Assembly: GCA_046756725.1 (NCBI GenBank) | Contig: JBHHWW010000001.1 | Span: 1-44,794, forward strand | Length of the DNA stretch: 44,794 nt | Source: Nitrospiria bacterium | GTDB lineage: Bacteria > Nitrospirota > Nitrospiria > SBBL01 > JAADHI01 | Direction of reading: 5' to 3' | Part shown: positions 14,720 through 44,714 of the stretch, piece by piece | Layout of the letters: each line of letters begins with the position of its first letter | Numbering within the stretch: the first letter of the stretch is position 1 | Notes under the pieces: generated by a model | Databases searched by the model: none | The model's input: the letters and a program-made list of their open reading frames with translations, nothing else | Told to the model about the DNA's origin: nothing | Translations under genes and position numbers: made by a program

Positions 14720-15431
14720 GCTTTCTTTATTCTGCATTGTGGTATTGACCGGGTTTGTTTTTACGGCTTGTTCCGGTCGGCAGATATCCCAAAAAAATCG
14801 ATCCTCTCCCCGGGAAACCCTGACTGTTGCGGTAATGCCCTTTCAAGTACAGCATATTCAGCGACCTGTTTCAGGAAGCCCTGTGCCGATTTCCGCGTTA
14901 TCTCGATCTCTGGTTGATCAAATTGAAGAAAAATTCATTGGATATCCGGGGGTGTCCCTCGTGGATCGGGAAGAGATTGATCAGGTCTTCCAAGAACTCT
15001 TTTTATCCAGCCATGAAGCCAGCCAGTCGGCGGTGCGGCTTCGGTTGGGAAGGCTTCTGGGCGCACAATATCTGGTGATGGGAACTTATACGCTGGTTGG
15101 TAAAGCCCTTCGAATGGATGCACGTATTGTCGAAGTCGAGCGGGGACGCGTTGTTGATAGCGTTTCAATGGATGGTTCTGTGACAGAAAGGGAGGCCATT
15201 GAGAGGTCTTTTTCTGAAAAAATCGTTGCAACCTTCTTGTCGAGCACAAGACGGTCGCTTCCTGAAAAGATGGTGAGCAGCGATGACCACTACTTAAAAG
15301 GGCGTTCACTTGAAAGAGAAAAAAACTTCACAAAGGCTTTGGTGCATTATAAAGCAGCCTTTTCCCTCAATCCTGAAAATCATAAAGTTTTAGATCGAAT
15401 CGAAGCATTGTCATTCAAGGAGATGGAATGA
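14691..15431 (+). CDS. Lipoprotein with a CsgG/TolB-N-like module + one TPR
   Basis: Lipobox VFTAC. The module is LTVAVMPFQ...LVDREEIDQVFQELFLSS...RLGRLLGAQYLVMGTY. A C-terminal TPR is present (ALVHYKAAFSLNPENH). It overlaps the upstream gene by 29 nt. Confidence 0.7.
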   Translation: MSVQLSRISELSLFCIVVLTGFVFTACSGRQISQKNRSSPRETLTVAVMPFQVQHIQRPVSGSPVPISALSRSLVDQIEEKFIGYPGVSLVDREEIDQVFQELFLSSHEASQSAVRLRLGRLLGAQYLVMGTYTLVGKALRMDARIVEVERGRVVDSVSMDGSVTEREAIERSFSEKIVATFLSSTRRSLPEKMVSSDDHYLKGRSLEREKNFTKALVHYKAAFSLNPENHKVLDRIEALSFKEME

Positions 15432-16759: not shown

Positions 16760-16814
16760 TATAAAGGATTTAAGTGCCCTTGATGCCCGTTTGTTGTAAA
16801 ATGAGAAAGGTCCC

Positions 16815-20912: not shown

Positions 20913-20921
20913 TCAAGTTAA

Positions 20922-29838: not shown

Positions 29839-30993
29839 TTGAGTCGAACGAAAGAAGTTAGTTTCAAATCAACCCTTTATTCTCTCGTCTTTTTATTTTT
29901 CTTTGTTGTTCCTACTTTAGCAACGGCTGAGCCTGACCCCATGGTCGGGAAACATCTGTTTCGTCATTACTGCGCCGTCTGTCATGGTTTTTCAGGCAAG
30001 GGCGATGGGATTAATGCCGATCATTTAGGCGATGTGCATCCGACTGATCTGACCACGTCTGAGTTTGACAAGTATGACGATGAGGAAATTTATGAAGTCA
30101 TTGAAGGAGGGGGGGCAGCGGTCGATATTTCTTATTATATGCCTCCTTGGGGCGGCGTCTTTGATGAAGAGCAAATACATAGCATTATCGCATATGTTCG
30201 GACTTTGTCGGCGGCGCAGGGCAGTCCGATTTCGGATATGGTGCGGGTTCCTGTCAATCGAAGTGGGAAGAAGGAGTGTCGCGTCTGTCATGTAGAAACG
30301 ACGAGTGTCTTGCGGCCCATCGCACCCAATATTGGACATGAAGGGAGCAAGTTGAAGCGCGATTGGCTAGAGACTTTTTTGAAGCAGCCGGAGAAGTTGA
30401 GGCCGATTGGTTTTATGCCCTTCACGAAGTCGAAGATGCCCAATTTTTACTTCACAGATGGCGAGGTGACTGCGCTTGTCGATTATCTGATGACACTCAA
30501 GGATGAAGGTATTGACGAAAGCGTTCTGATGGGTTGGGATGCTTCAGATTCAGCATTGATCGAAGAGGGGCAGTTCCTTTTTGAAGAAGAGTTCGCCTGC
30601 GACGGCTGTCACAAACGGTCTCCTGGCGGCGATGGCGGGATCGTCGGGCCAGAGCTGTCGTATGCAATGGAACGGATTCGCGTGGAGTGGATGTTTTACT
30701 GGATTAAAAACCCGCAAGCGATTCATCCAAATTCTCCAATGCCGAATTTCAGGATGTCGGATGAACAAATCCGGGCTGTTCTCGCTTATATGTCCAGTCT
30801 GAGTGAGGGGCGTTCAGTTGCAGCAACTGTTGCGGATGTTTCAGGCAGTGCGACCAGTATTGCGCGGGGAAAGAAAATTCTCGAAGGAAAGAACTGTGTT
30901 GGGTGCCATCTGGTTGATTCATTTAATAGTCAGTTGAAGGTCGAGGGTGATTCCCTCGGGGCGAGTGATTCGTCCGAAGGCATAGAAGAATAA
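29839..30993 (+). CDS. Secreted tetrahaem c-type cytochrome (class I-like domains)
   Basis: Signal peptide ...VVPTLATA. Haem motifs are CAVCH, CRVCH, CDGCH and CVGCH. Met-ligand regions are MPPWGG, MPNFYF and MPNFRM. TTG is the only start that includes the signal peptide (in-frame stop at 29833). Confidence 0.85.
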   Translation: MSRTKEVSFKSTLYSLVFLFFFVVPTLATAEPDPMVGKHLFRHYCAVCHGFSGKGDGINADHLGDVHPTDLTTSEFDKYDDEEIYEVIEGGGAAVDISYYMPPWGGVFDEEQIHSIIAYVRTLSAAQGSPISDMVRVPVNRSGKKECRVCHVETTSVLRPIAPNIGHEGSKLKRDWLETFLKQPEKLRPIGFMPFTKSKMPNFYFTDGEVTALVDYLMTLKDEGIDESVLMGWDASDSALIEEGQFLFEEEFACDGCHKRSPGGDGGIVGPELSYAMERIRVEWMFYWIKNPQAIHPNSPMPNFRMSDEQIRAVLAYMSSLSEGRSVAATVADVSGSATSIARGKKILEGKNCVGCHLVDSFNSQLKVEGDSLGASDSSEGIEE

Positions 30994-31015
30994 AACGTTG
31001 AAAAGGGGGGCAAGA

Positions 31016-31540
31016 ATGACGAAGAGGGTTTCGCTTTGGGTGCTGGTTTTGTTCGCAGTATTAATGCTATTGATTCCTGATTTGGGTCATGCAAAAAAAG
31101 ATGATGATAAGCCCTTAAAACCTGTTCCTAAAGCCTATGCGGACAAGAAAATGCCGAGTGGGTGGTGGACCGATGCAAAAATTATTGCAGAGGGAAAAGA
31201 GATCTTTGAAACACGGAAGATAGAATACATTTACAAGAGGAAGAAAAAGGTTGCAAAAGAAGGTTGTGCGACCTGCCATGCGATCAATAAGAAAAAAGAC
31301 CGCCCAAAAAAGCGGGGTGCCCGTGACTTTCGCGTAGCAAAACGGATGAACCGTTTTTCAGAGTCCTACTGGTTCTGGCGGATTGCCGAAGGGGTTAAGA
31401 AAACGGCAATGCCCGCGTGGAAAAAAGAGCTTACCGACGAAGAAATTTGGAAAACGATAGCCTACGAGCATACTTGGTCGCATGGGAACAAGCCTGCGGT
31501 TCATGATCATCCGGAAATTGAACATACATTTGAAAAATGA
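31016..31540 (+). CDS. Lys-rich monohaem c-type cytochrome
   Basis: Signal peptide, CATCH, distal TAMPAW. The ATG at 31016 is preceded by AAGGGGGG. Confidence 0.85.
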   Translation: MTKRVSLWVLVLFAVLMLLIPDLGHAKKDDDKPLKPVPKAYADKKMPSGWWTDAKIIAEGKEIFETRKIEYIYKRKKKVAKEGCATCHAINKKKDRPKKRGARDFRVAKRMNRFSESYWFWRIAEGVKKTAMPAWKKELTDEEIWKTIAYEHTWSHGNKPAVHDHPEIEHTFEK

Positions 31541-31622
31541 TCGATAATAAGCTGTTAGAAGCTTACATTGTGAAGTACTTTTGTTGGAATAAGGTAGTTT
31601 AGGACAGGAAACCAGAGAAGAC

Positions 31623-33179
31623 ATGGAAGTTGAGTCTATTAAGCCGTTCTTAGCTGTTATGATCCCTCTTGTCGGGTCCGTGTTTATTATTTTGGCCCGG
31701 AAGAAGCCGAATGTTCGAGAGGTCTGTACCTTGGTTACTGCCTTCGCGATGATGTTTTCTGTGATCGCGATGATTCCTTCTGTCCTTTCGGGAGAATTGC
31801 TTCACTATACTTTATTTACATTTTGGCCGACCGTTCCGTTTGGATTGCGTGTGGATGGGTTGGGGCTTGTTTTTGCGCTTGTCGCTTCTATCACGTGGGT
31901 TCTTACGAGTTTTTATGCCATCGGGTACATGCGAAGCCTTAATGAACATGCGCAAACGCGTTTTTTTTATTGTTTCGCGGTCACGCTGTTTGCCACGATG
32001 GGGGCGGCCTTCTCGAACAATTGGTTCACGCTTTTTATCTTTTACGAGTTGATCACCTTTTTTACCTATCCCCTGGTTGCTCATCATGAAACCAACGAAG
32101 CATGGGAAAAAGGGAATAAATACCTCGCATATCTTTTGGGGACCTCCAAGGTCTTTCTAATTCCTGCTATTCTTGCGACCTACTATTTTGCGGGTTCTAT
32201 CGATTTTAAGCCAGGAGGGATTATTCCTGTTGATGCAGACAAAACATTGTTGATAGGTATTTTTGTTCTCTATTTGGCTGGGATTGGGAAAGTGGCCTTC
32301 ATGCCGCTTCATTCCTGGCTCCCTGCTTCGATGGTCGCGCCGACGCCTGTTAGTGCTTTGCTGCATGCGGTTGCCGTTGTGAATACAGGTGCATTTTGTG
32401 TCCTCCGTGTCATCATCAACATCTTCGGATTTGATTTGGTGGGGACGTTGCATATCTCGACGTGGAGTCTTGGGGAAATAACGGCGGTGATTGCTTCCTT
32501 TACGATTATTACGGCCTCAATTTATTGCATGAAGGCGAATAACCTGAAAGAACGGATTGCCTATTCGACGGTGAGTCAGCTTTCCTATATGGTCCTCGGG
32601 GGCGCACTTTTGACACCCAGTGGTTTGTCAGGTGGTATTCTGCACATTGCCATGCATGCCTTTGCCAAGATTACACTCTTCTTTTGTGCTGGTTCGATTT
32701 ATGTAGCAACAAAAAAGACGCATGTTTCTCAATTGTCGGGGATCGGGCGAAAGATGCCTTGGACGATGGCCGCTTTTGCGATTGCAACGCTCAGTATGGT
32801 TGGGATTCCCCCTGCGGGTGGATTTGTGAGTAAGTGGTATCTGATGGTTGGCGCGACGGAAGCAAAAGAATTTTGGACCCTGATCGTTTTGGCGACGAGT
32901 TCCGTCTTGAATGCCTTTTATTTTGTCCCGATTGTGGTCAATGGATTTTTTGGGAAGTCCGAGGAGGAGGATGAGGTTCAGCCGCAGGCTGTGCCGCACC
33001 TCGTTCCGCAGAGTGTCGGTGCGGCTGCGGCAACAGTGAATAGAGGAAGGGGAGGATCGGAAATTCAAGAAGCGCCTTTGTTTGTCGTTGTCCCTCTTTG
33101 TATCACTGCTGTGGTGTCCTTGCTGTTGGGGATGTATCCAGGTTTTTTATTGGGGCTTGCTCAATTAATGCAACCATAA
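31623..33179 (+). CDS. Complex I/Mrp antiporter-like membrane subunit (NuoN/MrpD-type, proton-conducting membrane transporter family)
   Basis: 518 aa and polytopic. Hallmarks are TM5 Glu (FIFYELITFFTYPLVAH), GIGKVAFMPLHSWLPASMVAPTPVSALLHA, and HAFAKITLFFCAGS. Confidence 0.9.
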   Translation: MEVESIKPFLAVMIPLVGSVFIILARKKPNVREVCTLVTAFAMMFSVIAMIPSVLSGELLHYTLFTFWPTVPFGLRVDGLGLVFALVASITWVLTSFYAIGYMRSLNEHAQTRFFYCFAVTLFATMGAAFSNNWFTLFIFYELITFFTYPLVAHHETNEAWEKGNKYLAYLLGTSKVFLIPAILATYYFAGSIDFKPGGIIPVDADKTLLIGIFVLYLAGIGKVAFMPLHSWLPASMVAPTPVSALLHAVAVVNTGAFCVLRVIINIFGFDLVGTLHISTWSLGEITAVIASFTIITASIYCMKANNLKERIAYSTVSQLSYMVLGGALLTPSGLSGGILHIAMHAFAKITLFFCAGSIYVATKKTHVSQLSGIGRKMPWTMAAFAIATLSMVGIPPAGGFVSKWYLMVGATEAKEFWTLIVLATSSVLNAFYFVPIVVNGFFGKSEEEDEVQPQAVPHLVPQSVGAAAATVNRGRGGSEIQEAPLFVVVPLCITAVVSLLLGMYPGFLLGLAQLMQP

Positions 33180-33318
33180 GACCAGTAAGGATTTTTTGAA
33201 AGACATAAAAAGCATATTGGTTTAATCCGGTAATTTGAATCGGCATTGTTTTTAGTAGGCAGCTGGGTCTGGTTTGAGAGTAGATAGAATGTTGGTAGAT
33301 GTAGTTAGGAGCCTTTAG

Positions 33319-35112
33319 ATGGAGACAGCCATTCCAGTCTGGGTAATTGCCGTCCCCGTTATTGGGGCCCTGGCGTTGCTTTTTAAAAGAGATTCAGATC
33401 AATATCGAGATGGTGTTGTCGTCACTGCATGCACACTGCCCTTTCTTCTTCTCCTAAGCATCTATAGCAAGGCTGTCGATGGCGGCGTGAATTATGCACT
33501 TTCCTGGTTGCCGGGGATGGAACTGACCTTTAAGGTGGACTCCGCCAGTTTGCTAATTGCGCTAGTCACTGCCTTGCTCTGGATACTTTGTTCCATTTTC
33601 AGTATCACTTACATGACCCATGAAAAAAACCGCTTCCGCTATGACTTCTTCTCACTTCTGACTTTGGCGACAAACCTCGGGGTGCTTCTTGCCGGTGATT
33701 TCTTTACGCTCTTTATCTTTTTTGAAGGTCTGCTCTTATTCCCCTATCCCTTGATTGCGCATAAGGGCGATGCGCCAGCGATCAAAGGGGCCAACCTTTA
33801 CCTCTATGTTGGCGTTATCACGAGCTTGCTCCTTCTTTCGGGGATCGTCCTCTTGAAATTTTACACAGGAGGGGTTGCGCTACAGCCGATTGCGGATAGC
33901 ATCGCCGCAAATATGAGCAGTGGATTAAAATTTCAGATTGCGGCATTGATGGTCGTCGGATTCGGCGGAAAAGCCGGTCTCTTTTTTGAGCACTTCTGGT
34001 TGCCGGAGGCCCATCCCGTTGCGCCCTCACCTGCCTCTGCGCTTCTCTCCGCCGCTATGATAAAAGCGGGTGCCTACGGGATTTACAGGGTGGTGAATCT
34101 GCTATTTGTTCCGCAGGATGGCTCTGTCGGGGCTTGGTTGACCTTAAGTAATATCGGTTATGTGACGATCTTGATCGGGGCCATTACGATGTTCTTTGCT
34201 GTTATTTCTGCCTTGCTTTCTTCCAATTCCAAGCGGATGCTTGCTTTTCACAGTATCAGCCAGATGGGTTATATTGTGCTGGGGATTGGATGTGCGGCCT
34301 ACCTTGGGCGGGATGGAGCGATGGGGGCTGCAGGTGCCCTGTACCATATTGTGAACCATGCACTTTTTAAGGCGGCTCTCTTTTTAGGAGTTGGTGCAGT
34401 CTACTTTAGAACAAACGAGCTCGATATGTACAAGCTGGGTGGGCTTATGAAGAACATGCCAGTTACTGCCATTTGTCTGTTGATTGCTGTTTTCGGTATA
34501 TCTGGTGTTCCCTTCTTCAACGGTTTTGCGAGCAAGACTATCTTGCATCATGCCATCATAGAATCGTATGAGCATGGGCATGATACGATTCTATGGATTG
34601 TCGAAAAACTTTTTATTATTACGGCGGCAGGCACATTTGCCTCGAATTTTAAGCTATTTTATCTGACTTTCCGGGGGGATCGTCTAAAGAAATATGATCA
34701 TGTTGAGCCCGCGCCACTTCCGATGAAGATCGGGATGATCGGCTTTGCCGTCGCTATCCTCTTCCTTGGAATCTTTCCCAACTGGTTGCTGGAAGCGGCC
34801 ATCGGCCCGGCCTTGGCCAGTTTTGGATTTGATGCAAGTTCCCACGCCTACCATCTTTTGTATGACGTGCAGACACAAGTCTCTGGGCTGGCAATTCTTT
34901 ACCCAGGCGCGGAATCATTTTCGAGTGTTCTACACAATCTTTTCTCCGGTGTTATTGCCATTGGCTTAGGTGTAGGACTGATGTTCAGTGGGATGAAGTT
35001 TGGTTGGTTTCACATTCACTTACCTAAATTTATGACCTTTGATTTTTATGCGACCAAGGCGCTTAAACGCTTGTTAAACCCCTGGTCGCTTGTTGTGGAT
35101 AAACAAACTTGA
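33319..35112 (+). CDS. Complex I/Mrp antiporter-like membrane subunit (NuoL/NuoM/MrpA-type)
   Basis: 597 aa and polytopic. Hallmarks are FIFFEGLLLFPYPLIAH, GGKAGLFFEHFWLPEAHPVAPSPASALLSAAMIKAGAYG, and NHALFKAALFLGVGAV. AGGAG lies upstream of the ATG. Confidence 0.9.
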   Translation: METAIPVWVIAVPVIGALALLFKRDSDQYRDGVVVTACTLPFLLLLSIYSKAVDGGVNYALSWLPGMELTFKVDSASLLIALVTALLWILCSIFSITYMTHEKNRFRYDFFSLLTLATNLGVLLAGDFFTLFIFFEGLLLFPYPLIAHKGDAPAIKGANLYLYVGVITSLLLLSGIVLLKFYTGGVALQPIADSIAANMSSGLKFQIAALMVVGFGGKAGLFFEHFWLPEAHPVAPSPASALLSAAMIKAGAYGIYRVVNLLFVPQDGSVGAWLTLSNIGYVTILIGAITMFFAVISALLSSNSKRMLAFHSISQMGYIVLGIGCAAYLGRDGAMGAAGALYHIVNHALFKAALFLGVGAVYFRTNELDMYKLGGLMKNMPVTAICLLIAVFGISGVPFFNGFASKTILHHAIIESYEHGHDTILWIVEKLFIITAAGTFASNFKLFYLTFRGDRLKKYDHVEPAPLPMKIGMIGFAVAILFLGIFPNWLLEAAIGPALASFGFDASSHAYHLLYDVQTQVSGLAILYPGAESFSSVLHNLFSGVIAIGLGVGLMFSGMKFGWFHIHLPKFMTFDFYATKALKRLLNPWSLVVDKQT

Positions 35113-35147
35113 AAATCCTCAAAAATATAAGCGAAAGAGGGATTGTC

Positions 35148-37610
35148 ATGGTTTTTAAAAAAGTAATAAAGCAACCCATGGTCTGGGCATCTTTTCTCAT
35201 TGCCTTACTCCTCTTGATACCAACTGGTTCACTTTTTGCCGAAACAGTAGAATCTCTTTACCGTGACGTGCCCAGTATGGGCAGTCGTAATATCATCTGG
35301 TTGTTTTCTCAGGTTCACATTTTATTCGGGGCCTTTGTCCTGGGTGTTCCGATGTTTATTATCATCATCGAAATTATCGGTATTACGACAGGAGAGAAGC
35401 GGTATGACCGCTTGGCTCAGGAATTTATGGATTTGATTGTCGCGTGTTTTGCGACGACGGCCACGATCGGGATTTTCTTTCTTTTTGCGTTGCTCGTCTT
35501 CTATCCCACACTCATGTCAACGATGGCAGACATCTTTAAACCGACTTATTATATTTATGTCTTACTCTTCTTATATGAAACCCTTTCTGTTTATGTTTAT
35601 TGGGATCGCTGGGATAAATGGCAGAACCGCAAAGGACTTCATCTTTTCTGGGGTTTTATGCTCAATACCGCTGGAATCTTGCTTGTTATCTTGCCAAGTG
35701 GCTTTCTTGCTTTCCAGGCGAGCCCTGTGGTCTTGAATCCTGAGTTTGGCCCTTGGGAAAAGGCTTGGGCGGCACTTAATAATCCGACTTGGGTTCCCGT
35801 GATTATCCATCGGATTGTTGGAAACCTCATCTTAGGAGGGTTTGTTTGCGGGGCCTACGCCGGGGTGGCTTACCTGGGCGCTAAAACGCAGGAAGAGCGG
35901 GAACATTACGACTGGATGGGATATATCGGAAATTTTATCGGGGTTTTCGGTCTCCTCCCAATGCCCTTTGCAGGTTATTATTTGATGCGCGAAGTCTATG
36001 AATACAACCAGCAGATGGGGATTACTTTGATGGGAGGGATCCTGTCCTGGCTTTTTATCTTACAGGCTGTGCTCATCGGGGTTCTTTTCCTTGGTGCCAA
36101 TTATTATTTCTGGCAGGGAATCGCTTACCGAACCCATTCCGCGCCAAAGTATAAAAACGCCATTGTTATTATGTTGGTTGCATTGGTTGGGGCTTTCTCT
36201 GTCTGGCTTACACCTCATTCGCTTGTGGCCAGTGTTTCTGAAGCCAGAGCAATGGGAGGAGCGCATCATCCACTCCTGGGGGTGTTTGGTGTTATGTCGG
36301 CCAAGTTGACTGTTGTGAATTTGATGATTGTGACAACCTTTGTTTGCTTTATCTTATACTGGCGGGCAGATAAGGTTGTGACTGTTAAGTGGGGGAAGGC
36401 CGCAAATATATTTACAGTTGCTTTGATTACCGTTGCGGTTATTTTCATTATCTGGTTGGGTGTCTACGGTTATTTTGTCCCCTCTGTTTATCGTGTGAAT
36501 GTCCTTTCCGTTGCTCAGGTGTTTGCTGTTCTTTTTGTGATGTTTACGATTACGCCTCTCACGGCACTTTCCTTGAAATCTGCGAAATTGACCCATGAGA
36601 TGAAGTGGGGTGTCATGCCGCCTCGCTCCCAGTATGCTTTGGTTATCAATGCTGTCTTTGTGGTTTTAACGATGGCGCTGATGGGATATGCCCGGTCTGC
36701 GTCCCGGGTTCACTGGCATATTTATGGTGTTTTGGAAGATACCTCTTCATATGCCTATACCCCGACCCTCGGTGTCGCGTCTTTCCTTTTTGTGCTGTCC
36801 ACAGCTGTTTTTTGCATAATGACGGGCATTGTTTTTTGGACCTCGCACACGATCCGACATAATCGTTTTTCCACCCGTTACTTCTTTCTAGCCCCTGTTT
36901 TTATGTGGTTTACGGAATTATTTGGGGACAAACAGAAGGAGAAAAAAATACATGCGGGAGGACGGAGGTTTGTTATTACGAAAGTAACGGCTGTGGTCGG
37001 TCTATTTTTGCTTGCCTACGCCTACGTAGGTTATCAAGTACCTCAGAAAGTGGGTCTGCCACCCGAGAAGAAAGCCTTGGATCTGTCTAAGATTAAAACC
37101 AAAGACGATATGGTTCAAATTGGACAGGATATTTTTTATAGCAAGGGGCAGTGTGCCCTTTGTCACTCAATCGGAGCCGGCCATGGTCGCTGTCCGAATC
37201 TTTTAGGAGTCGGGGCGCGTTTGACGCGAGAGTTTATCTATGAAACGCTGGTAAAGCCAGAGGCCTATATCAAGTTGGACTTTCATTCTGCAAAACCAGT
37301 AAATTATGCTGCAGAAATGCCCATTATCAACAAGGCCCCCATTGGTCTATCCGAAGAGGAGCTTTTGACCGTAGTTGCTTTTGTTCAGAGCAATGGTGGA
37401 AAAGTCACGGTCACTCCAGAAGAGTTGAGAGAGACGTCAAGTGGGCCGGAAACAGTGCCGGGGGGCCTCGATGTGCCTCCGGAAGTAGAGCCAGCTGAGA
37501 TGATTGGAGAAGAATCTAATGAAGATCCTGAAGAACTTGCGATGTTTGGTGGAAAATCCCCGAGGAATACAGAGCATTCTAGTATGGCTGAATTAAAAGT
37601 AGGTGAATAA
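35148..37610 (+). CDS. Cytochrome bd subunit I-like ('bd-like') oxidase with extra TM helices, fused to a C-terminal monohaem cytochrome c domain
   Basis: CydA-like N-terminus GSRNIIWLFSQVHILFGAFVLGVP (axial His), LFLYETLSVYVYW (conserved Glu), VIIHRIVGNLILGGF (second His). About 14-16 hydrophobic segments, then CALCH (37152-37166) and an acidic tail. No cydB-like gene is adjacent. The ATG at 35148 is preceded by AGAGGGA; a TTG at 35109 is possible. Confidence 0.85.
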   Translation: MVFKKVIKQPMVWASFLIALLLLIPTGSLFAETVESLYRDVPSMGSRNIIWLFSQVHILFGAFVLGVPMFIIIIEIIGITTGEKRYDRLAQEFMDLIVACFATTATIGIFFLFALLVFYPTLMSTMADIFKPTYYIYVLLFLYETLSVYVYWDRWDKWQNRKGLHLFWGFMLNTAGILLVILPSGFLAFQASPVVLNPEFGPWEKAWAALNNPTWVPVIIHRIVGNLILGGFVCGAYAGVAYLGAKTQEEREHYDWMGYIGNFIGVFGLLPMPFAGYYLMREVYEYNQQMGITLMGGILSWLFILQAVLIGVLFLGANYYFWQGIAYRTHSAPKYKNAIVIMLVALVGAFSVWLTPHSLVASVSEARAMGGAHHPLLGVFGVMSAKLTVVNLMIVTTFVCFILYWRADKVVTVKWGKAANIFTVALITVAVIFIIWLGVYGYFVPSVYRVNVLSVAQVFAVLFVMFTITPLTALSLKSAKLTHEMKWGVMPPRSQYALVINAVFVVLTMALMGYARSASRVHWHIYGVLEDTSSYAYTPTLGVASFLFVLSTAVFCIMTGIVFWTSHTIRHNRFSTRYFFLAPVFMWFTELFGDKQKEKKIHAGGRRFVITKVTAVVGLFLLAYAYVGYQVPQKVGLPPEKKALDLSKIKTKDDMVQIGQDIFYSKGQCALCHSIGAGHGRCPNLLGVGARLTREFIYETLVKPEAYIKLDFHSAKPVNYAAEMPIINKAPIGLSEEELLTVVAFVQSNGGKVTVTPEELRETSSGPETVPGGLDVPPEVEPAEMIGEESNEDPEELAMFGGKSPRNTEHSSMAELKVGE

Positions 37611-38430
37611 TAGATTGTTGATTGAAATAAAACGAAACTACTTGCTTGTCTCGATACTGTTGCTCTTTATCCTCTTTTCAGTAGGGTGCGAAAATAAATA
37701 TGTTGCCAAGGGACATGAGATTTATAGTCGTTACTGTTCTGCGTGCCACGGTGAGAAGGGCGATGGGACCGGATACAATGCGGGGAATCTTGATCCAGTT
37801 CCTCGCGATTTGACCGATAGCGAAGAAGTCTACATGTCAAAACTATCGAATGATGAAATCTTTGAAGTCCTTCAATTGGGTGGTTACGGGGTGGATCTTT
37901 CAGGAGGGATGCCAGTCTGGGGAAAGGTATTCTCGGAAGAAGAACTCTGGTCTCTTGTCGCCTATGTCCGTACGCTTCATCCGAATGAAGGCAATGAGAT
38001 TGTATTTACAAAACCTGATTCTGAAGAACCGGTATTTGATTCAAAGCGCGTGCGATATCCCAAGGTGAAAGAAAAAAATTTTTACGACCTTCTTGGGTCT
38101 CTGGCGCCTGATGAAGATGCTTTCCAGGAACAAGTCGCTTTGGGAGAAGAGATCTTTAGTGAAGTCGGGTGTAATGCGTGCCATAAGGTGAATGGAGAAG
38201 GGGGGGAATTGGGGCCTGATTTATCCCGAGCCGGTTTTATGCTCCAAACCCAGTTCATCTTTCGTTGGATCATGAATCCGCAATCGTTTCTCCCTAAAAC
38301 GAGGATGGCAAACCTGGATTTAAAAGAGGAAGATGCCCTTGCTATTTCTCTCTACCTAAGTACACTGAACGGTGATGCTCCAAAAAATAATGTTTCAGAG
38401 GAAGATGAAGATGAGGGTGGGGGAGTTTAG
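37603..38430 (+). CDS. Dihaem c-type cytochrome, probable lipoprotein
   Basis: Signal with ...FSVGC, then CSACHGEKGDG and CNACHKVNGEG, with Met regions GMPVWG and KTRMANL. The GTG start overlaps the upstream stop by 8 nt. Confidence 0.85.
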   Translation: MNNRLLIEIKRNYLLVSILLLFILFSVGCENKYVAKGHEIYSRYCSACHGEKGDGTGYNAGNLDPVPRDLTDSEEVYMSKLSNDEIFEVLQLGGYGVDLSGGMPVWGKVFSEEELWSLVAYVRTLHPNEGNEIVFTKPDSEEPVFDSKRVRYPKVKEKNFYDLLGSLAPDEDAFQEQVALGEEIFSEVGCNACHKVNGEGGELGPDLSRAGFMLQTQFIFRWIMNPQSFLPKTRMANLDLKEEDALAISLYLSTLNGDAPKNNVSEEDEDEGGGV

Positions 38431-38432
38431 AT

Positions 38433-39179
38433 ATGAAATTACCTCTAATTGTTAAGGCCACAGCCACTGAATTAGGAATCTACGCTTTTTTAAAATTGGG
38501 GATGCCTCTTTTTACGAGTCCTCTTCCTTCCAGTGTTGTCTTTATGTACATGACCTTGGCGACGATATCGATCCTGGTCTACGTTTCGATTTATGAGGAT
38601 GACTTTAATAACTTTTATGTTCCGATTACTTCGTTTATTCGTGGAAATGCGGAAGACAATGCCGGTCGGAAAATGAGCCGTGCAGCCGTATTGATCATGA
38701 TTCCTCTCTTTTTCGGTTTTCGTTCATATCAGAGTGTACAGCCTAATTATGAGCCTCCTTTTCCGCAACGTGTCATTCATCCCGCGCCTCCTGGTTCGGC
38801 CGCAGGATTTACGAATCCCTACGGAGATGACGAGGCAAATCATGAAGCATTTGTTCAAGAGGGGAGAGATGTCTACTATCGCAATTGTGTTTTTTGTCAC
38901 GGCGACAAACTGGATGGAAAAGGTTTATTCGCCCATGCGTTGAATGTTAAACCAGCGAATTTTGCAGATTCAACAACGATTTCAATGCTGATGGAATCCT
39001 TTGTTTTTTGGCGTGTCAAGACGGGAGGCATCGGGTTGCCTGAAGAATCGACTCCGTGGGATTCTGCGATGCCGAGATGGGAATTGATTTTATCGGAAGA
39101 GGAAAGATGGAAAGCCATTATGTTTTTATATGACTATACGGGTTGGAAACCACGGACTTGGGAATTAGATGCGGAGTGA
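38433..39179 (+). CDS. Membrane-anchored (about 3 TM) monohaem c-type cytochrome
   Basis: The N-terminal hydrophobic segments are followed by CVFCHGDKLDG and distal SAMPRW. It starts 2 nt after the upstream stop. Confidence 0.8.
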   Translation: MKLPLIVKATATELGIYAFLKLGMPLFTSPLPSSVVFMYMTLATISILVYVSIYEDDFNNFYVPITSFIRGNAEDNAGRKMSRAAVLIMIPLFFGFRSYQSVQPNYEPPFPQRVIHPAPPGSAAGFTNPYGDDEANHEAFVQEGRDVYYRNCVFCHGDKLDGKGLFAHALNVKPANFADSTTISMLMESFVFWRVKTGGIGLPEESTPWDSAMPRWELILSEEERWKAIMFLYDYTGWKPRTWELDAE

Positions 39180-40747
39180 ATAAGTTGTTTATTGTTAGTA
39201 GGGAGAATATTAGTCTATTGGCCTTCTTAACGCTCCTGATTCTATTTGGATGGGCGCCCTTTGTTCTGACTGATGAAGAAGAACTTCCTCCTCAGGTTGC
39301 CGAGCAAGAAGCGCTCCCGACTGATGATCTTGCTGCCGGTAAAAAGATTTACGAAAAACGATGCATCTCATGCCATGGGGACGAAGGGGACGGAGACGGG
39401 CCCGCTGCGGACAGGTTCCAGCCAAAGCCTCGAAGCTTTAAAAAGGCCGAGTATAAATATCGGACGACACCCCGGGGTGCGCTTCCGACTGATGATGATC
39501 TTTTTAAAGTCATCACAAATGGACTTCCCGGTACTGGAATGCCTGACTGGGCGGATGTATTAACTGAAAAGAATAGGCATCAGGTTATTAAATATATCAA
39601 AACTTTTTCTGACAAATGGGAAAAACAGGAAGGTTCGCCTGAAGTTGTAAAAATTGGGAAAATGGTGCCTTCCAGTCCAGAAAGCATAGAAAGAGGAAAG
39701 AATCAATTCAAAACATTGGGATGTAATCTTTGTCATGGTGTAGAAGGAAGGGGGGATGGACCAACGTCTTCTTCGTTGAAAAATCACCGGGGAGATCCTG
39801 TTTATCCAAGAAACCTTAGCAAGAATTGGTTGTTCAGAGGAGGGGGTGAGGCTGAGAATATCTACATGCGGTTTAATACAGGCCTGAATGGGACACCCAT
39901 GCCCTCATTTAGTAAAGCCCTAGATAATGAGAAGAGTTGGGATTTAGCAAATTATGTCCGTTCCCTCTCTCCTCCTAAAAAGCCCGAGAGAGGCTCAATG
40001 GTGAACTCTCTTCGAACCGAGGGGCCTGTTCCAACCGATCCTGACGATCCCCTTTGGCTGGAAGCTGGGCCCAATTGGTTTCCGATGATGGGGCAAATTT
40101 CCTTTAAGAAAAGACTTTTTACCCCCTCAGTTACGGATATAACAGTAAAATCGATCTTCAATGAAAAGGAGATTGGATTCCTGTTGACTTGGGATGACAG
40201 AAGCAAGAGTAAGGTGAGCAAGCCAGGGGCGAAAAAACAAATTTATAGTGACCAGGTTGCGATTCAGTTTCCAGAGAAGCTACAGCCCGGAGGGGTTAAA
40301 AAGCCTTACTTTATCATGGGTGATGAGAAATTAGGCGTGAACTTATGGTATTGGTCGGCCGACGATAACCGGTTTTTTGAGACCAATGCAAACGGGGTTT
40401 GGAACAATAGTGAAGTGGAGCAGGGCAACTCGGACATTACAGGAAAAGGCTATTACAAAGATGGGCAATATCGTGTCGTAATAAAACGATCTTTACAGAC
40501 AGCGGATAAAGAGAAAGATATTCAATTTGAGCAAGGGGTTTTTTACCCCATTGCTTTTTTTGCGATGGATGGAACCAATGGTGAGACGGGTTCGAAGAGG
40601 TCTATTACGCCATGGTATTTTGTCTTTATGGAGCCGGAATTTGATACGAGTGTTTATATCTTTCCGCCAATGGTCATACTGCTTGCTTTCTGTGTCGAAT
40701 TCGTCCTAGTAAAAATCTTGAAAAAGAATCACAAAAAGACAAGCTAG
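39176..40747 (+). CDS. Dihaem cytochrome c fused to an EB_dh/DOMON-like haem-binding domain, with a C-terminal TM anchor
   Basis: CISCHGDEGDGDG and CNLCHGVEGRGDG. The next part, ...DQVAIQFPEK...PYFIMGDEKLGVNLWYWSADD...GQYRVVIKRSL...IAFFAMDG, resembles the gamma-subunit haem b domain of ethylbenzene dehydrogenase/Nar-type enzymes. The C-terminal helix is IFPPMVILLAFCVEFVLV. The start is ambiguous (TTG 39143, GTG 39176, TTG 39185). Confidence 0.75.
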   Translation: MNKLFIVSRENISLLAFLTLLILFGWAPFVLTDEEELPPQVAEQEALPTDDLAAGKKIYEKRCISCHGDEGDGDGPAADRFQPKPRSFKKAEYKYRTTPRGALPTDDDLFKVITNGLPGTGMPDWADVLTEKNRHQVIKYIKTFSDKWEKQEGSPEVVKIGKMVPSSPESIERGKNQFKTLGCNLCHGVEGRGDGPTSSSLKNHRGDPVYPRNLSKNWLFRGGGEAENIYMRFNTGLNGTPMPSFSKALDNEKSWDLANYVRSLSPPKKPERGSMVNSLRTEGPVPTDPDDPLWLEAGPNWFPMMGQISFKKRLFTPSVTDITVKSIFNEKEIGFLLTWDDRSKSKVSKPGAKKQIYSDQVAIQFPEKLQPGGVKKPYFIMGDEKLGVNLWYWSADDNRFFETNANGVWNNSEVEQGNSDITGKGYYKDGQYRVVIKRSLQTADKEKDIQFEQGVFYPIAFFAMDGTNGETGSKRSITPWYFVFMEPEFDTSVYIFPPMVILLAFCVEFVLVKILKKNHKKTS

Positions 40748-40810
40748 GAAAAAATACTTCTGTTGTAGAGGCAAAGGTAAGAGATAATCTATAGTCGTGA
40801 AAAGAGCAGT

Positions 40811-41305
40811 GTGATTAAAAATGCTGTCATTATCCTGCTCATTCTATTGGGTTCTGTGGGCCCACTTTTAGCGACGCATGAGGCGGATCATCGATATGTT
40901 CTGTCAGGTTATGTAAGAGACACAAGTGGCATTCCCCTATCTGAGGTGACGGTCTTTTTGGAACATAAAGGGGGAGAAAAAAAGAGTATAAAAACAAATA
41001 ACGACGGTTACTATGAAATTCTTTTTCACCTACATAATAGTAATCTTGGGGATCAAATAATTGTTAAGTATGGAGAGAATAAAATAAAACACAGAGTTGA
41101 GTTTGATCCTGATGATAAGTTCACGAATAGAGGCGCGGAATTAAATTTTGGTGCACCTGGGAAGGAAAGTGGAAATTTTTGGATTTATTTGACTGGGGGC
41201 GGCATCCTTGTTTTTCTCCCCTTTGTGTATAGAGGTTTCTTCGGGAAAAAAAAGGTTGTAGGTAAGGTTTCGGCAGAAAAAAAACGAAGAAGAAAGAAAT
41301 CGTAA
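40811..41305 (+). CDS. Secreted CarboxypepD_reg-like beta-sandwich protein with a C-terminal TM helix and polybasic tail
   Basis: Signal peptide, then YVLSGYVRDTSGIPLSEVTVFLEHKGGEKKSIKTNNDGYYEI. A TM segment FWIYLTGGGILVFLPFVY follows. The tail is KKKVVGKVSAEKKRRRKKS. Confidence 0.6.
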   Translation: MIKNAVIILLILLGSVGPLLATHEADHRYVLSGYVRDTSGIPLSEVTVFLEHKGGEKKSIKTNNDGYYEILFHLHNSNLGDQIIVKYGENKIKHRVEFDPDDKFTNRGAELNFGAPGKESGNFWIYLTGGGILVFLPFVYRGFFGKKKVVGKVSAEKKRRRKKS

Positions 41306-41341
41306 GGTTGGTATGGAATGTGACGATGGAGGTTGTGAAAG

Positions 41342-41893
41342 ATGAGCCCGGTAGAGAGTAGCGATGAAGATGTCAGCCGTCGACGCTTCTTTACCCTGAT
41401 GGGGTTGGGTGTCGGATGGGGTGGTGTGGCAGCGGCTTTGGGAGGCGTGGGTGTTGGTGCGGCACGCTATATGTTTCCGTCTGTGGTTTATGAACCACCC
41501 ACTGTATTTAAAATAGGGCTTCCCAGCGATTATGGAATCGGAACCGATACGAAACTCAAAAAAGAACGACAGATTTGGGTTGTGCGCAATACTAAGGGGA
41601 TCTATGTTCTGGTCGCAATCTGTCGGCATTTGGGATGTACCCCGAACTATTTTAATGATCAACAATTGTTTCGGTGTCCCTGCCATGGCAGTATCTACGA
41701 TATTTATGGCAATGTCCTTGGCGGACCGGCACCGCGCACTTTGTGGCGTACAGCAATTTCTATTGACCCCGTCGATGGACAGATTGTCGTCGATTTTAAT
41801 CGTAGGCAAGATCCCGATCCGAAAGGAACAGAAGAAGGACTGATGGTGGATGAGGCAAGCAGAGAAGTCGAGCCCTTCTTTTTAAGGGTTTAG
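41342..41893 (+). CDS. Rieske [2Fe-2S] subunit with a Tat signal
   Basis: Twin-arginine [12 protein letters not shown]. Cluster boxes are CRHLGC and CPCHGS. GGAGG lies upstream of the ATG. Confidence 0.93.
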
Positions 41894-41915
41894 TTGTCAT
41901 GAGGAGCAAGGCAGG

Positions 41916-42686
41916 ATGTTGAAATTACTTCAGCAGATTCGCGCAGTAATTAATAAAACACAGGTATGGAAGTCCATTTTTCGACATGGTTATCCGGATA
42001 ACGATGGTAATCGCGCATTGGTGATGTTCAGCAATGTAATTTTACATCTCCATCCGGTTCGTATTCGACGAGGTGCCCTGAAAATAAAATTTACCTGGTG
42101 TTTGGGGGGGCTCACTTTTTTCTTCTTTATTCTTCTCGCGATTACGGGTGTATTCCTGATGTTCTATTACGTCCCGGATACGAACCGTGCTTACAATAAC
42201 ATTCGGGATTTGGGGACCGTTATCTTTTTTGGTGATTTATTTCGGAGTCTTCATCGCTGGTCTGCGCATGCGATGGTGCTGTTTGTCTGGTTGCATATGA
42301 CGCGGGTGTTTTTAACGGGTTCTTACAAACCTCCCAGAGAGTTTAACTGGGTTGTCGGGGTGATCTTGTTAGCAACAACACTGGTGTTAAGTTGGACGGG
42401 GTATCTTTTGCCGTGGGATCAGTTGGCCTTGTGGGCTGTGACGGTCGGAAGCAAAATGGCGGAAGCGTCTCCACTCATTGGAAAGGCGGGGCCATTTGGG
42501 CCGGAGTTAGGGATGACAGCCGATAATGATATTACCTTTGCCTTACTTGGGGGAACGGTTGTTGGTCAGAGTGCTCTGCTTCGTTTCTATGTCCTTCACT
42601 GTCTCGCTTTGCCGTTAGTGACTGCTCTTTTTATAGCCGTTCATTTTTGGAGAATCCGGAAGGACGGATTCTCGGGTCCATTATAA
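41916..42686 (+). CDS. Cytochrome b6-type (split) cytochrome b, N-terminal haem-binding subunit
   Basis: The His pairs are [15 protein letters not shown] (13 residues between ligands) and [16 protein letters not shown] (14 between). WCLGG matches the b6 YCLGG Cys. The C-terminus RKDGFSGPL is close to b6 RKQGISGPL. Confidence 0.93.
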
Positions 42687-42711
42687 ACAAACGATTTGAT
42701 TGAGGAAGTCT

Positions 42712-43572
42712 ATGTCAGAGAAATCTTCAGGTTCCGCGGCTACCGCAACAGAAACCCCGTCGAAATCTTTAGCCGAAATGATCAAGAGGACTGCTAAAGA
42801 AAAAATTGGGCCGGAAGACACAGTCTTGGTATGGCCAAACCTGGTTTACCTAGAATTAATTTCCATGCTTTTTGCCTTGGCAATTTTGTTATTCCTTTGC
42901 TTGTATTCTCCCGCACCATTGGAAGAGCTCGCAAGTGCCGATACGACGCCAAATCCGACGAAGGCGCCTTGGTATTTTCTAGGATTGCAGGAACTGCTTG
43001 TTTATTTTGATCCCTGGCTTGCCGGGGTTGTCCTGCCGTCTCTGATTATCGTCGGACTTATTCTGATTCCGTATATTGATCCAAACCCCAAGGGGAAGGG
43101 GTATTATTGTTTTTCTGAAAGGAAGTTTTCTGTCTTGGGTTTTAGTTTTGGATTAGCACTCTGGTATATTTTGATCGTGATTGGGGTCTGGTTCAGAGGG
43201 CTTGATTGGTCCTGGTATTGGCCGTGGGATGATCCACATTTCCATCAACCAGCAGGTGCTGTTAAGCTGGTTGATCTGCAGGTGATTATCCAGAGTGCGC
43301 TCGGGTTGAGTGAAAACCCGATCGTTACCCTGGGGCGTTATGCGATAACGATCGCAAATATGATCACTTGGGCGATATTTTTAGGATATTATGCCATTGG
43401 TTTTACAATCCCTGCTATTTTTATGCGGAGCTTTTATAATCGTTTGGGGTTCGTCAGGTACAATTTGACCATGGTCATGTTTCTATCCATGATGGGCGTT
43501 CCTTTAAAAATCTTTGTTCGCTTATTGGCGGATATTAAGTATGTGCTTGTGACACCTTGGTTTAATATTTAA
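42712..43572 (+). CDS. Subunit IV-like / cytochrome b C-terminal subunit with extra C-terminal helices
   Basis: PetD-like core WPNLVYLEL...TKAPWYFLGLQELLVYF...LILIPYID. At about 286 aa it is much longer than the roughly 160-aa subunit IV. The ATG at 42712 is preceded by GAGGAAG. Confidence 0.85.
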   Translation: MSEKSSGSAATATETPSKSLAEMIKRTAKEKIGPEDTVLVWPNLVYLELISMLFALAILLFLCLYSPAPLEELASADTTPNPTKAPWYFLGLQELLVYFDPWLAGVVLPSLIIVGLILIPYIDPNPKGKGYYCFSERKFSVLGFSFGLALWYILIVIGVWFRGLDWSWYWPWDDPHFHQPAGAVKLVDLQVIIQSALGLSENPIVTLGRYAITIANMITWAIFLGYYAIGFTIPAIFMRSFYNRLGFVRYNLTMVMFLSMMGVPLKIFVRLLADIKYVLVTPWFNI

Positions 43573-43593
43573 CTTTCTTGGATGAGGTTCTAA

Positions 43594-43734
43594 ATGGATG
43601 ATCTATGGGCTTATCCCTATCGTTTGGGGATTGGAATCTTCATTGTGGTCGGGACTATCCTCCTGACTGGGGGTTTTGTTGCTTTTACTGCCTGGCTTGA
43701 ACATGATTTTAAAAAGGATAAATCGAAAAAGTAG
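43594..43734 (+). CDS. Unlisted 46-aa single-TM peptide, candidate small subunit of the Rieske/cyt b complex
   Basis: ATG at 43594 with GAGG 7 nt upstream. The translation is MDDLWAYPYRLGIGIFIVVGTILLTGGFVAFTAWLEHDFKKDKSKK*, with one hydrophobic helix and a basic tail. It is too short to appear in the supplied ORF track and fills the gap between subunit IV and the tetrahaem c gene. Confidence 0.5.
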   Translation: MDDLWAYPYRLGIGIFIVVGTILLTGGFVAFTAWLEHDFKKDKSKK

Positions 43735-43793
43735 GTACCCTTATACAACAGCTTAATAGATATTGAAGTGTTGAAGAGGAGAACGATCGGTAT

Positions 43794-44714
43794 ATGGTAA
43801 AGCATTTTGTTTTTGCGGTTTCAAGTGTTCTTGTAGTTTTTCAGCTAGGCATCTTTGTTTATAAATATGAAACAGCCGAATGGAGAACCTATCAATCGAC
43901 CTATTATCAAAAACTTTCCGAGGTCGTAAATCAGCCGAGCATTGCAGAGACCCCTCTTAAGGTTGATCAAATCTGGGATAAAAATCTCAATCGACCGGAT
44001 CGTTGTACGACTTGTCATGGTGGAATTGCAAATCCGGCTTTTGAGAGTGAGTCACAACCTTACAAAGTCCATCCACATTTTAAAGACAAGGGTTTTATTT
44101 CGAAGCATCCATTTGAGAAATTCGGGTGCACCATTTGCCACGAAGGAAATGGGCAGGCCGTTACTGTGGCTGCAACGCATGGTGTTGTTCATCATCTAGA
44201 TCGGCAGTTGTTGACGGGTCCCTATGTTCAGGCTTCCTGTACAAAATGTCATTATGAACTTCATTCCCGCGATGTCTATTGGCCTGAGGCAGATGTTCTC
44301 ATGAAAGGGAAGCAACTTGCTTATGAGTTGGGATGTGGCGCTTGTCATGCAATTCGACAATTTGGCACAAACCCGACTGTTGCGCCTGAAATTTCAAATA
44401 TGGGAAGTAAAACAGAACTCGCTTTTTCTCTTGTCCATGATTTTACACATCTTGAATCAGAAGATCATCTGACGCGTGTTTGGGAATTTGAACACTTCAA
44501 AGATCCGCAAAAAATTGTTCCCGGTAATCCTGATGCGGAAGATCCAAAAGAACGCACTTCGCCTACTATTATGCCAGATTGGGATTTGACGGATGAAGAA
44601 GCCACTGCATTGACTGTTTTCGTGATGTCGCTCAGGGACCCTCAAGTTGAAAATATTCCGAGATCCTACTTTCCAAAGATTGATAGCCACGAAGGCTTCC
44701 TTCAGTACAGATAG
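43794..44714 (+). CDS. Membrane-anchored tetrahaem c-type cytochrome
   Basis: N-terminal TM FAVSSVLVVFQLGIFVY. Haem motifs are CTTCH, CTICH, CTKCH and CGACH. GAGGAG lies upstream of the ATG. Confidence 0.85.
   Translation: MVKHFVFAVSSVLVVFQLGIFVYKYETAEWRTYQSTYYQKLSEVVNQPSIAETPLKVDQIWDKNLNRPDRCTTCHGGIANPAFESESQPYKVHPHFKDKGFISKHPFEKFGCTICHEGNGQAVTVAATHGVVHHLDRQLLTGPYVQASCTKCHYELHSRDVYWPEADVLMKGKQLAYELGCGACHAIRQFGTNPTVAPEISNMGSKTELAFSLVHDFTHLESEDHLTRVWEFEHFKDPQKIVPGNPDAEDPKERTSPTIMPDWDLTDEEATALTVFVMSLRDPQVENIPRSYFPKIDSHEGFLQYR

Follow-up and report, generated by a model that had tools for sequence, protein, structure and literature searches.

Two antiporter-like subunits beside a cytochrome bd-like oxidase in Nitrospirota: distribution, origin and possible function of the pairing

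Two antiporter-like membrane proteins of family PF00361, here called P1 and P2, are encoded directly upstream of a cytochrome bd-like oxidase gene, BD, on contig JBHHWW010000001.1 of a Nitrospiria bacterium. Their position raises the question of what such subunits do beside an oxidase. To answer it, we analysed the 44.8-kb stretch that carries these genes (hereafter referred to as the window), running Pfam scans over all 37 main open reading frames (ORFs; at least 120 amino acids (aa), nested ORFs left out), and compared the locus with its relatives. P1, P2 and BD belong to a single tightly packed cluster of 14 genes on the + strand (29839–44714), which we read as an operon and which also encodes c-type cytochromes, an NxrC-like haem-b protein and a Rieske/cytochrome b complex (Table 1). 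The answer we favour, with a confidence that comes close to even but stays short of it, is that P1 and P2 dock on the oxidase and move ions outward.

Identity of the cluster and its three central proteins

The cluster is the marine-type 'TO_2' terminal-oxidase operon of Candidatus (Ca.) Manganitrophaceae, because it has the same gene content, its nearest relatives come from this family, and a homologous cluster is present in the freshwater Ca. Manganitrophus sp. SA1 (GCA_021651075.1, locus L090). The closest named relatives of BD, at 76–82% identity, stem from hydrothermal-vent metagenome-assembled genomes (MAGs) labelled 'Candidatus Manganitrophaceae bacterium' (here and below, taxon names of comparison loci are the labels on the records). 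TO_2 was described by Yu et al. 2022 (mBio, PMC9040806) on the basis of earlier work by Yu & Leadbetter 2020. In the 2022 paper, a bd-like oxidase is encoded together with two MrpD-like subunits and two cytochromes b, one accessible from the periplasm and one in the membrane; the proposal is that the complex may bifurcate electrons from Mn(II), sending them to O2 and to quinone, while ion motive force is dissipated through the MrpD-like subunits. The window shares the oxidase, two MrpD-like subunits, the haem-b protein, cytochrome b with Rieske protein and many cytochromes c, and appears to match the published marine arrangement gene by gene. The original prediction had pointed to similar pairings in genome papers on lithotrophic Nitrospirota, and PMC9040806 bears this out. 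The novelty it implied was set too high, as the TO_2 arrangement and both hypotheses on the direction of ion flow are already published, while the cluster itself is still uncharacterised. What we add is a wider distribution, evidence for an origin at the head of an Mrp operon with replacement of one subunit, a truncated lateral helix and an insertion specific to the oxidase.

Both P1 (E = 6e-51, 173.7 bits) and P2 (E = 1e-50, 173.0 bits) match PF00361 far above its cut-off of 21.5 bits. The best NCBIfam model for P1 is NF006236 'MrpD', at 654.7 bits marginally under the equivalog cut-off of 663; P1 is an MrpD-family subunit, and the evidence for its fold consists of sequence matches to Protein Data Bank (PDB) chains. 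Alignment with Escherichia coli NuoL, NuoM and NuoN located the key residues in transmembrane helices (TM) 5, 7, 8, 11 and 12, namely E142, K223, H249, K349 and K404 in P1 and E136, K218, K249, K351 and K406 in P2. The TM5 Glu (NuoL E144 column) and TM7 Lys (NuoL K229 column) are invariant, the TM11 motif His-x3-His-x3-Lys corresponds to NuoL H334/H338/K342, and the TM12 Lys corresponds to NuoL K399. At TM8, P1 has a NuoL-type His (H254 column) and P2 a NuoM-type Lys (K265 column). The charged axis (TM5 Glu, TM7 Lys, TM8 Lys/His, TM12 Lys/Glu) is complete in both proteins, and the five motifs that had been quoted as keeping proton-channel residues all align to functional positions of NuoL/M/N.

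The AlphaFold2 model of P2 (predicted local distance difference test (pLDDT) score 88.6) shows the 14-TM core of the antiporter-like fold, which is built on two inverted 5-TM repeats. In Foldseek, MrpA 7qru_A was the top match (TMq 0.85), followed by 6z16_A (0.83) and by MrpD/MbhH chains (0.73–0.74). Beyond the core, the model predicts an extra TM15 at residues 534–561 (nucleotides (nt) 34918–35001) and ends in a putative 13-residue helix stub at residues 574–586 (nt 35038–35076), with no TM16. In the alignment, NuoL and relatives of 800–1000 aa go on into the lateral helix and TM16 where P2 stops. A full lateral helix on P2 was ruled out from the alignment and the model, which leave only the stub. 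P2 lacks the long lateral helix (HL) anchored by TM16 that defines NuoL/MrpA-type terminal subunits, and is a truncated subunit of this type.

None of the 37 main ORFs encodes CydB, NuoA/H/J/K, MrpB/C/E/F/G or DabA. The families of the complex I/MBH coupling module (PF00146, PF00507, PF00499, PF00420, PF00346 and PF01058) had no match in the window, and the Mrp complex partners, including the MrpA C-terminal domain, are missing from these ORFs; the comparison loci L005, L006 and L088 do have MrpB/C/E/F/G-type partners. That the two subunits stand without their usual partners, as originally claimed, is borne out by these scans. A hidden NuoK/MrpC-like small gene was ruled out as well, since intergenic gaps in the cluster of at most ~230 nt leave no space for a concealed NuoK-sized gene. 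The sole small conserved ORF in the cluster encodes a 46-aa single-TM peptide, and the window has no homologue of a two-TM protein of 80–115 aa found in other arrangements (see below). CO2 hydration of the DAB/Cup kind was ruled out, the window having neither DabA (PF10070) nor CupA. The DAB system (DabA/DabB) and cyanobacterial CupA–NdhD3/F3 have PF00361 subunits away from NuoH/J/K modules and coupled to another enzyme; the window differs from them in that the partner is a redox enzyme and in having two PF00361 subunits, not one. In fold and in the Lys/Glu axis, P1 and P2 resemble Mrp antiporters and the membrane arm of complex I. The window differs from these in lacking the Mrp and Nuo partners listed above, the Q-module and a full lateral helix; its presumed driver would be a bd-family oxidase, and the coupling path would be without precedent.

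BD is the sole CydA-like gene in the window. Its longest ORF (35109–37610) starts at a TTG that overlaps the P2 stop by 4 nt; the public gene call starts at ATG 35148 and gives 820 aa. Because an AGAGGG ribosome-binding site precedes this ATG, in agreement with the public call, the two genes are probably 35 nt apart, so that of the claim that P2 ends next to or overlapping BD the adjacency stands and the overlap does not. PF01654 matches BD at 50.3 bits over residues 67–313 only (profile positions 10–253 of 418), and the match to CydA in the PDB (28.7 bits) covers the first ~200 residues. About 14–15 TM helices are predicted, and the C-terminal cytochrome c domain contains one CxxCH motif, CALCH (nt 37152–37166). 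H57, the equivalent of His19, aligns with Geobacillus CydA His21, and H221, the equivalent of His186, aligns with the b558 His; both are invariant among 23 BD homologues. BD falls outside the canonical CydAB quinol oxidases, which are defined by a full-length CydA, a Q-loop and CydB, and the expectation of a CydB-less bd-like oxidase next to the pair is confirmed by the PF01654 match and the lack of CydB in the window.

From its sequence features, we assign BD to the OR-N2 cytochrome bd-like family, by comparison with the family description (O2-site four-helix core, His19 equivalent, ~14 TM). OR-N2 proteins have ~14 TM and no quinol site, keep the His19 equivalent, often occur without a second cydA and are found mainly in Nitrospirota (Murali et al. 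2021, bioRxiv 10.1101/2021.01.16.426971); reviews of Nitrospirales and Nitrospinota call the subunit composition and function of OR-N proteins experimentally unconfirmed. The window resembles the OR-N2/NIDE0901-type module known from Nitrospira and Nitrospina (Luecker et al. 2010; Murali et al. 2021). BD is 50–60% identical to the Nitrospira proteins, and the module likewise contains a membrane-anchored cytochrome c (TMc), a cytochrome c fused to a haem-b domain (cEB), a dihaem cytochrome c (c2) and Rieske/cytochrome b, with the His19 equivalent and without Q-loop or CydB. cEB, always found alongside BD, is the 'periplasmic cytochrome b' of TO complexes. Canonical Nitrospira OR-N2 loci differ in having no PF00361 gene, no insertion at residues 573–592 (see below) and usually an OR-N1 paralogue instead.

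Distribution and origin of the pairing

A bd-like alignment scan of GTDB species representatives matched at least 598 loci, of which the best 80 were examined. Among these 80, three gene orders were seen in which the PF00361 pair adjoins BD. In type i, the type of the window, the order is c4-c1-P1-P2-BD-..., where c4 and c1 are cytochromes c; the cluster of 13–14 genes is identical in L001 (P2 84% identity), L003 (64%), L008 and L011, between unrelated flanking genes. Type ii, found in L009, L010, L012 and Ca. Manganitrophus SA1, is like type i with a different second subunit, P2'. In type iii the order is BD-P1-small protein-P2'-TMc-cEB-c2, and BD and P1 overlap by 1–11 nt. This type lies inside an otherwise Nitrospira-type cluster in L016 (labelled 'Nitrospira sp. 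RCA', Rifle) and L017. Short modules of type iii are found in L018, in L019 from a marine Nitrospirae MAG and in L020 from a MAG labelled Gammaproteobacteria. Compared with the freshwater Ca. Manganitrophus TO_2, the window has a P2 that is non-orthologous to P2', which resembles the N-terminal domain of MrpA and has Asn for the TM7 Lys, and it lacks the small two-TM protein.

Adjacency to BD is kept in two BD clades and at P1 identities as low as 57% (range 57–84% protein identity), and the pair always adjoins BD, never cytochrome b. Chance does not account for the adjacency, since all relatives examined retain it; the synteny on which the original prediction had staked its case is found in all three gene orders. 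The pairing of BD and PF00361 is not confined to Ca. Manganitrophaceae, as it also occurs in Nitrospira-type clusters and in modules that lack a bc complex. PMC9040806 calls TO_2 unique to the family, whereas here the pair is also seen in Nitrospira-type and other MAGs. A literature search that included Nitrospira and Nitrospina papers found no paper reporting the pairing outside Ca. Manganitrophaceae.

In the smallest arrangement, the six-gene module of L020, the order is c1, BD, P1, the small protein, P2', a protein in which three cytochrome c domains are fused to EB_dh, and c2. Transposase genes of the IS66 and Mutator families directly precede this module (L020:8234-18674), and unrelated genes follow it. 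Such a setting points either to horizontal transfer of the module in its entirety or to mis-binning. In L019, the genes immediately upstream of BD-P1-P2' (L019:1436-9695) encode an AioA-like molybdoenzyme (Rieske_3 + Molybdopterin, 929 aa) along with a dihaem cytochrome c, an EB_dh protein and a protein with HEAT repeats; the BD-P1-P2' module might serve an arsenite-type donor there. Neither L019 nor L020 has a Rieske or cytochrome b gene within 10 kb.

About 60 of the 80 loci are canonical Nitrospira, including N. moscoviensis (L070) and N. defluvii (L086). They are without PF00361 and keep BD-TMc-cEB-c2 together with Rieske-cytochrome b. In other clusters without PF00361 (L013, L014 and L046), c4-c1 stands directly 5' of BD. 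L013 (SBBT01000106.1), from Ca. Troglogloeales, has three tandem BD-TMc-cEB modules, the first after c4-c1 as in the window, and looks like a pre-insertion state of the operon.

Each of the three BD-linked arrangements includes a P1 orthologue. P1-like proteins of 56% identity head a Nitrospirota Mrp operon (L088, in the order P1-like, 82-aa protein, MrpA, B, C, D, E, F, G) and follow NuoK in the complex I operon of Nitrospira defluvii (L089). P2' (for example L090:11657-13186 and L016:14068-15648) is 65% identical to the N-terminal antiporter domain of the L088 MrpA (L088:11768-14011), and the two share replacements of the TM7 Lys by Asn/Ser and of the TM10 Lys by Arg. The small protein is a conserved two-TM protein of 80–115 aa that ends in ...LMKxEDYYD (pattern ...W[DE]xxPxF...YG...SKxxxHxxLMKxEDYYD) and belongs to no Pfam family. 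Its gene lies between the P1-like gene and MrpA in L088, and types ii and iii have it next to P1/P2', whereas the window type does without it. The protein may be an Mrp accessory subunit that has so far escaped notice.

P2 has a different set of kin. Its nearest outside relatives (49–57% identity) are terminal subunits of 750–1000 aa, whose clusters contain between three and six PF00361 genes as well as small subunits of Mrp or Nuo. In a metagenome scan with P2, 78 of 79 loci encoded such long relatives, none with BD; the single ~600-aa P2-like protein (L091, 64% identical) did have BD, adding one further TO_2 locus. A neighbour-joining tree placed P1 with the P1-like proteins, P2 with the long terminal subunits and P2' with MrpA, each group in 50/50 bootstraps. 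These comparisons indicate that the pair derives from the head of an Mrp-type operon, and that in the marine Manganitrophaceae lineage P2' and the small protein were replaced by the truncated MrpA/NuoL-like P2, which kept the place beside BD.

An insertion in the oxidase and the direction of ion flow

BD proteins linked to PF00361 genes carry a ~20-residue aromatic segment (RFSTRYFFLAPVFMWFTELF in the window), which was present in 14/14 of them, as well as in L015, and in 0/17 BD proteins without PF00361. The segment follows the final TM helix of the core and precedes the one by which the cytochrome c domain is anchored. Because the loops on both sides are basic and the segment is too short for two membrane crossings, it is probably a re-entrant or interfacial element at the cytoplasmic face, and it is a candidate docking site for P1/P2. 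In the BD tree, the PF00361-linked oxidases fall into two clades, one of types i and ii and one of type iii with L015, a 2.4-kb contig that ends in a P1 fragment; in both clades the pair is present at every locus with enough flanking sequence. The correlation between insertion and PF00361 genes may stem from one common origin and not from convergence. Whichever applies, a change in oxidase structure is thereby tied to the occurrence of the antiporter-like genes.

In the mechanism that we tentatively favour, c-type cytochromes and the NxrC-like haem b would deliver periplasmic electrons to BD, which would reduce O2 with cytoplasmic protons at ~1 charge per electron, the yield of bd oxidases. 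P1 and P2 would form a heterodimer, probably inherited from the Mrp head interface, that is docked on BD, possibly via residues 573–592. Proton-coupled O2 reduction in BD would be transmitted to the Lys/Glu axis of P1/P2, and H+ (or Na+) would be expelled. With one ion translocated by each of P1 and P2 per turnover event, the yield would rise from ~1 to ~2 charges per electron. The potentials given in PMC9040806 are +466 mV for Mn(II) and +818 mV for O2. The resulting ~350 mV per electron suffices for roughly two charges at a proton motive force (pmf) of 150–170 mV, which makes outward pumping thermodynamically possible; for Mn(II)- or nitrite-level donors, which leave ~350–390 mV to O2, the higher yield is energetically allowed.

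Recruitment by the oxidase is supported by the fact that the pair follows the module of BD, haem-b protein and cytochromes c even where a bc complex is missing, and by the private insertion. Coupling to BD is further supported by the swap of the second subunit for a non-orthologous one that kept its position, and by the restriction of BD adjacency to the ~600-aa clade of P2 (1/79 metagenome loci). The idea of a redox enzyme that had recruited antiporter modules, put forward in the original prediction, is partly supported by these observations. Outward pumping is preferred over pmf consumption because the pair travels with an exergonic oxidase module even without a quinone-reactive partner: L019 and L020, lacking Rieske and cytochrome b, offer no endergonic reaction for the pair to drive.

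If outward pumping is correct, bd-type oxygen reductases could pump ions, and antiporter-like modules could be driven, or could drive chemistry, without the E-channel of complex I. This would bear on the energy yield of lithotrophs that live on high-potential donors (Mn(II), nitrite, possibly arsenite). The full claim is that two Mrp-derived subunits have made a bd-family oxidase, in textbooks the example of an oxidase that does not pump, a true ion pump, with no E-channel and with coupling via a private cytoplasmic-face insertion, giving an independent route to redox pumping in the form of a portable module; taken as a whole, we regard it as plausible but on balance doubtful. The minimal module of L020, the defined 20-residue insertion and the defined Lys residues make the proposal testable, and nature provides controls in related oxidase modules without PF00361 and in two non-orthologous second subunits.

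Several points weigh against outward pumping. The literature (PMC9040806 and PMC10839748) contains no biochemical or structural evidence for an association of P1/P2 with BD, and the O2-reductase activity of OR-N2 proteins is putative and unproven. The AlphaFold2 model of BD is of low confidence (pLDDT 63.7), although its Foldseek matches are to CydA chains (probability 1.0), and it supports no reading finer than a CydA-like fold. No E-channel-like module (NuoH/A/J/K) is at hand, so that the coupling route would be unprecedented. Most Nitrospira run the same oxidase module without PF00361 on similar redox spans, and the Manganitrophaceae operon always includes a bc-type complex, which fits the published pmf-driven quinone reduction. 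The comparison moreover draws on only the best 80 of the at least 598 bd-like loci, and the trees are all of the distance-based neighbour-joining kind.

The last of the biological points leads to the same complex running in reverse, with inward ion flow via P1/P2 dissipating pmf and driving electrons uphill from Mn(II)- or nitrite-level cytochrome c to quinone through Rieske/cytochrome b, as Yu et al. 2022 proposed (PMC9040806); BD would then possibly supply O2 reduction as the exergonic branch of a bifurcation. These autotrophs require reverse electron flow, antiporter modules are by textbook account reversible in complex I, and all type i/ii clusters encode Rieske, cytochrome b and a cytochrome b C-terminal-like protein in the operon. 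We nevertheless consider this direction unlikely. L019 and L020 carry the pair with BD, cEB and cytochromes c but none of the bc genes, the pair never adjoins cytochrome b at any locus, and the co-varying insertion is located in BD. In addition, canonical Nitrospira, which have bc and BD and no PF00361, still perform reverse electron transport, and a reversed Q-cycle is already pmf-driven.

P1 and P2 might also act on their own, as a minimal cation/proton antiporter or channel that serves pH or Na+ homeostasis and shares no more than a transcript with the oxidase, uncoupled from it in energetic terms. Their descent from Mrp-type antiporter genes, their intact channel residues and the marine and hydrothermal organisms among their hosts are in keeping with such a role, and PF00361 proteins such as DabB and NdhD3/F3 are textbook examples of action outside complex I and Mrp. 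Characterised Mrp antiporters, however, require all of their subunits (textbook), and at least one TO_2 genome appears to encode a full Mrp operon too (P0284 and P0018 on a 757,770-nt contig). As BD adjacency in three gene orders and a BD-specific insertion are also unexpected under mere co-regulation, we judge this role to be distinctly improbable. A slim chance, smaller again, goes to something else altogether, including BD not being an O2 reductase. Least credible, and very improbable, is that P1 and P2 are spare subunits swapped into Mrp or a multi-subunit complex I and placed beside BD by accident: the P1-like genes in the L088 Mrp operon and after NuoK in L089, and the complex I forms of Manganitrophaceae with extra MrpD-like subunits, such as the five-pump Complex_I_3 (PMC9040806), would suit it, but P2 lacks the lateral helix and TM16 needed to clamp neighbours in these complexes, BD adjacency persists over two BD clades, and the minimal module of six genes seems to have been transferred in one piece.

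The operon and its surroundings

The genes of the cluster are listed in Table 1, together with the BD insertion and the small-protein genes of the comparison loci. The first gene, c4, keeps its position in L001, L003, L008 and L090.

Table 1. Genes of the oxidase cluster in the window and related features (coordinates of the window unless a locus is named)
Feature	Coordinates	Strand	Domains and remarks
c4, tetrahaem c-type cytochrome, first operon gene	29839–30993	+	PF00034/PF13442; 4 CxxCH
c1, monohaem cytochrome c	30998–31540	+	PF13442; 1 CxxCH
P1, antiporter-like subunit, MrpD family, 518 aa	31623–33179	+	PF00361
P2, MrpA/NuoL-like antiporter subunit, 597 aa	33319–35112	+	PF00361
BD, OR-N2-type cytochrome bd-like (CydA-like) protein with C-terminal cytochrome c domain	35148–37610	+	PF01654, PF00034
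BD insertion RFSTRYFFLAPVFMWFTELF, residues 573–592	36864–36923	+	Found only in PF00361-linked BDs and L015
c2, dihaem cytochrome c	37603–38430	+	Adjoins BD module in all cluster types
TMc, membrane-anchored monohaem cytochrome c	38433–39179	+	Conserved companion
cEB, dihaem cytochrome c fused to NxrC/EbdC-like haem-b domain, C-terminal TM anchor	39143–40747	+	PF09459, E = 5e-18; TIGR03477
CPD, small membrane protein, CarboxypepD_reg-like domain	40811–41305	+	
Rieske 2Fe-2S protein	41342–41893	+	PF00355
Cytochrome b, N-terminal, b6-like	41916–42686	+	PF00033, E = 8e-41
Protein resembling cytochrome b C-terminal part/subunit IV	42700–43572	+	Weak PF00032, 18.8 bits, below cut-off; position conserved
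46-aa single-TM ORF	43594–43734	+	Same-size gene called at equivalent place in L001, L003
Tetrahaem c-type cytochrome, final cluster gene	43794–44714	+	Conserved
Small-protein genes of comparison loci	L088:11527-11775; L090:13209-13556; L010:1351-1608; L016:13833-14075; L019:13984-14238; L020:13841-14086; L018:7582-7848		

A scan of the sequence for promoters and terminators gave the same counts as in shuffled sequence. Upstream of the cluster, a trp operon lies on the opposite strand. Further upstream, a Ser/Thr protein kinase is encoded in two overlapping ORFs (11525–12749), with the N-lobe in 11525–12049 and the C-lobe and a PEGA domain in 11982–12749; the split could reflect a frameshift, a pseudogene or an assembly error. 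A run of + strand genes follows (12746–22502), encoding TPR/CsgG-like lipoproteins, a 1365-aa beta-helix protein (DUF1565/NosD-like) and a TPR protein with a weak match to MtrB/PioB-type porins (24.2 bits). These genes, ~7 kb upstream of the oxidase operon, could constitute an outer-membrane apparatus for extracellular electron uptake.

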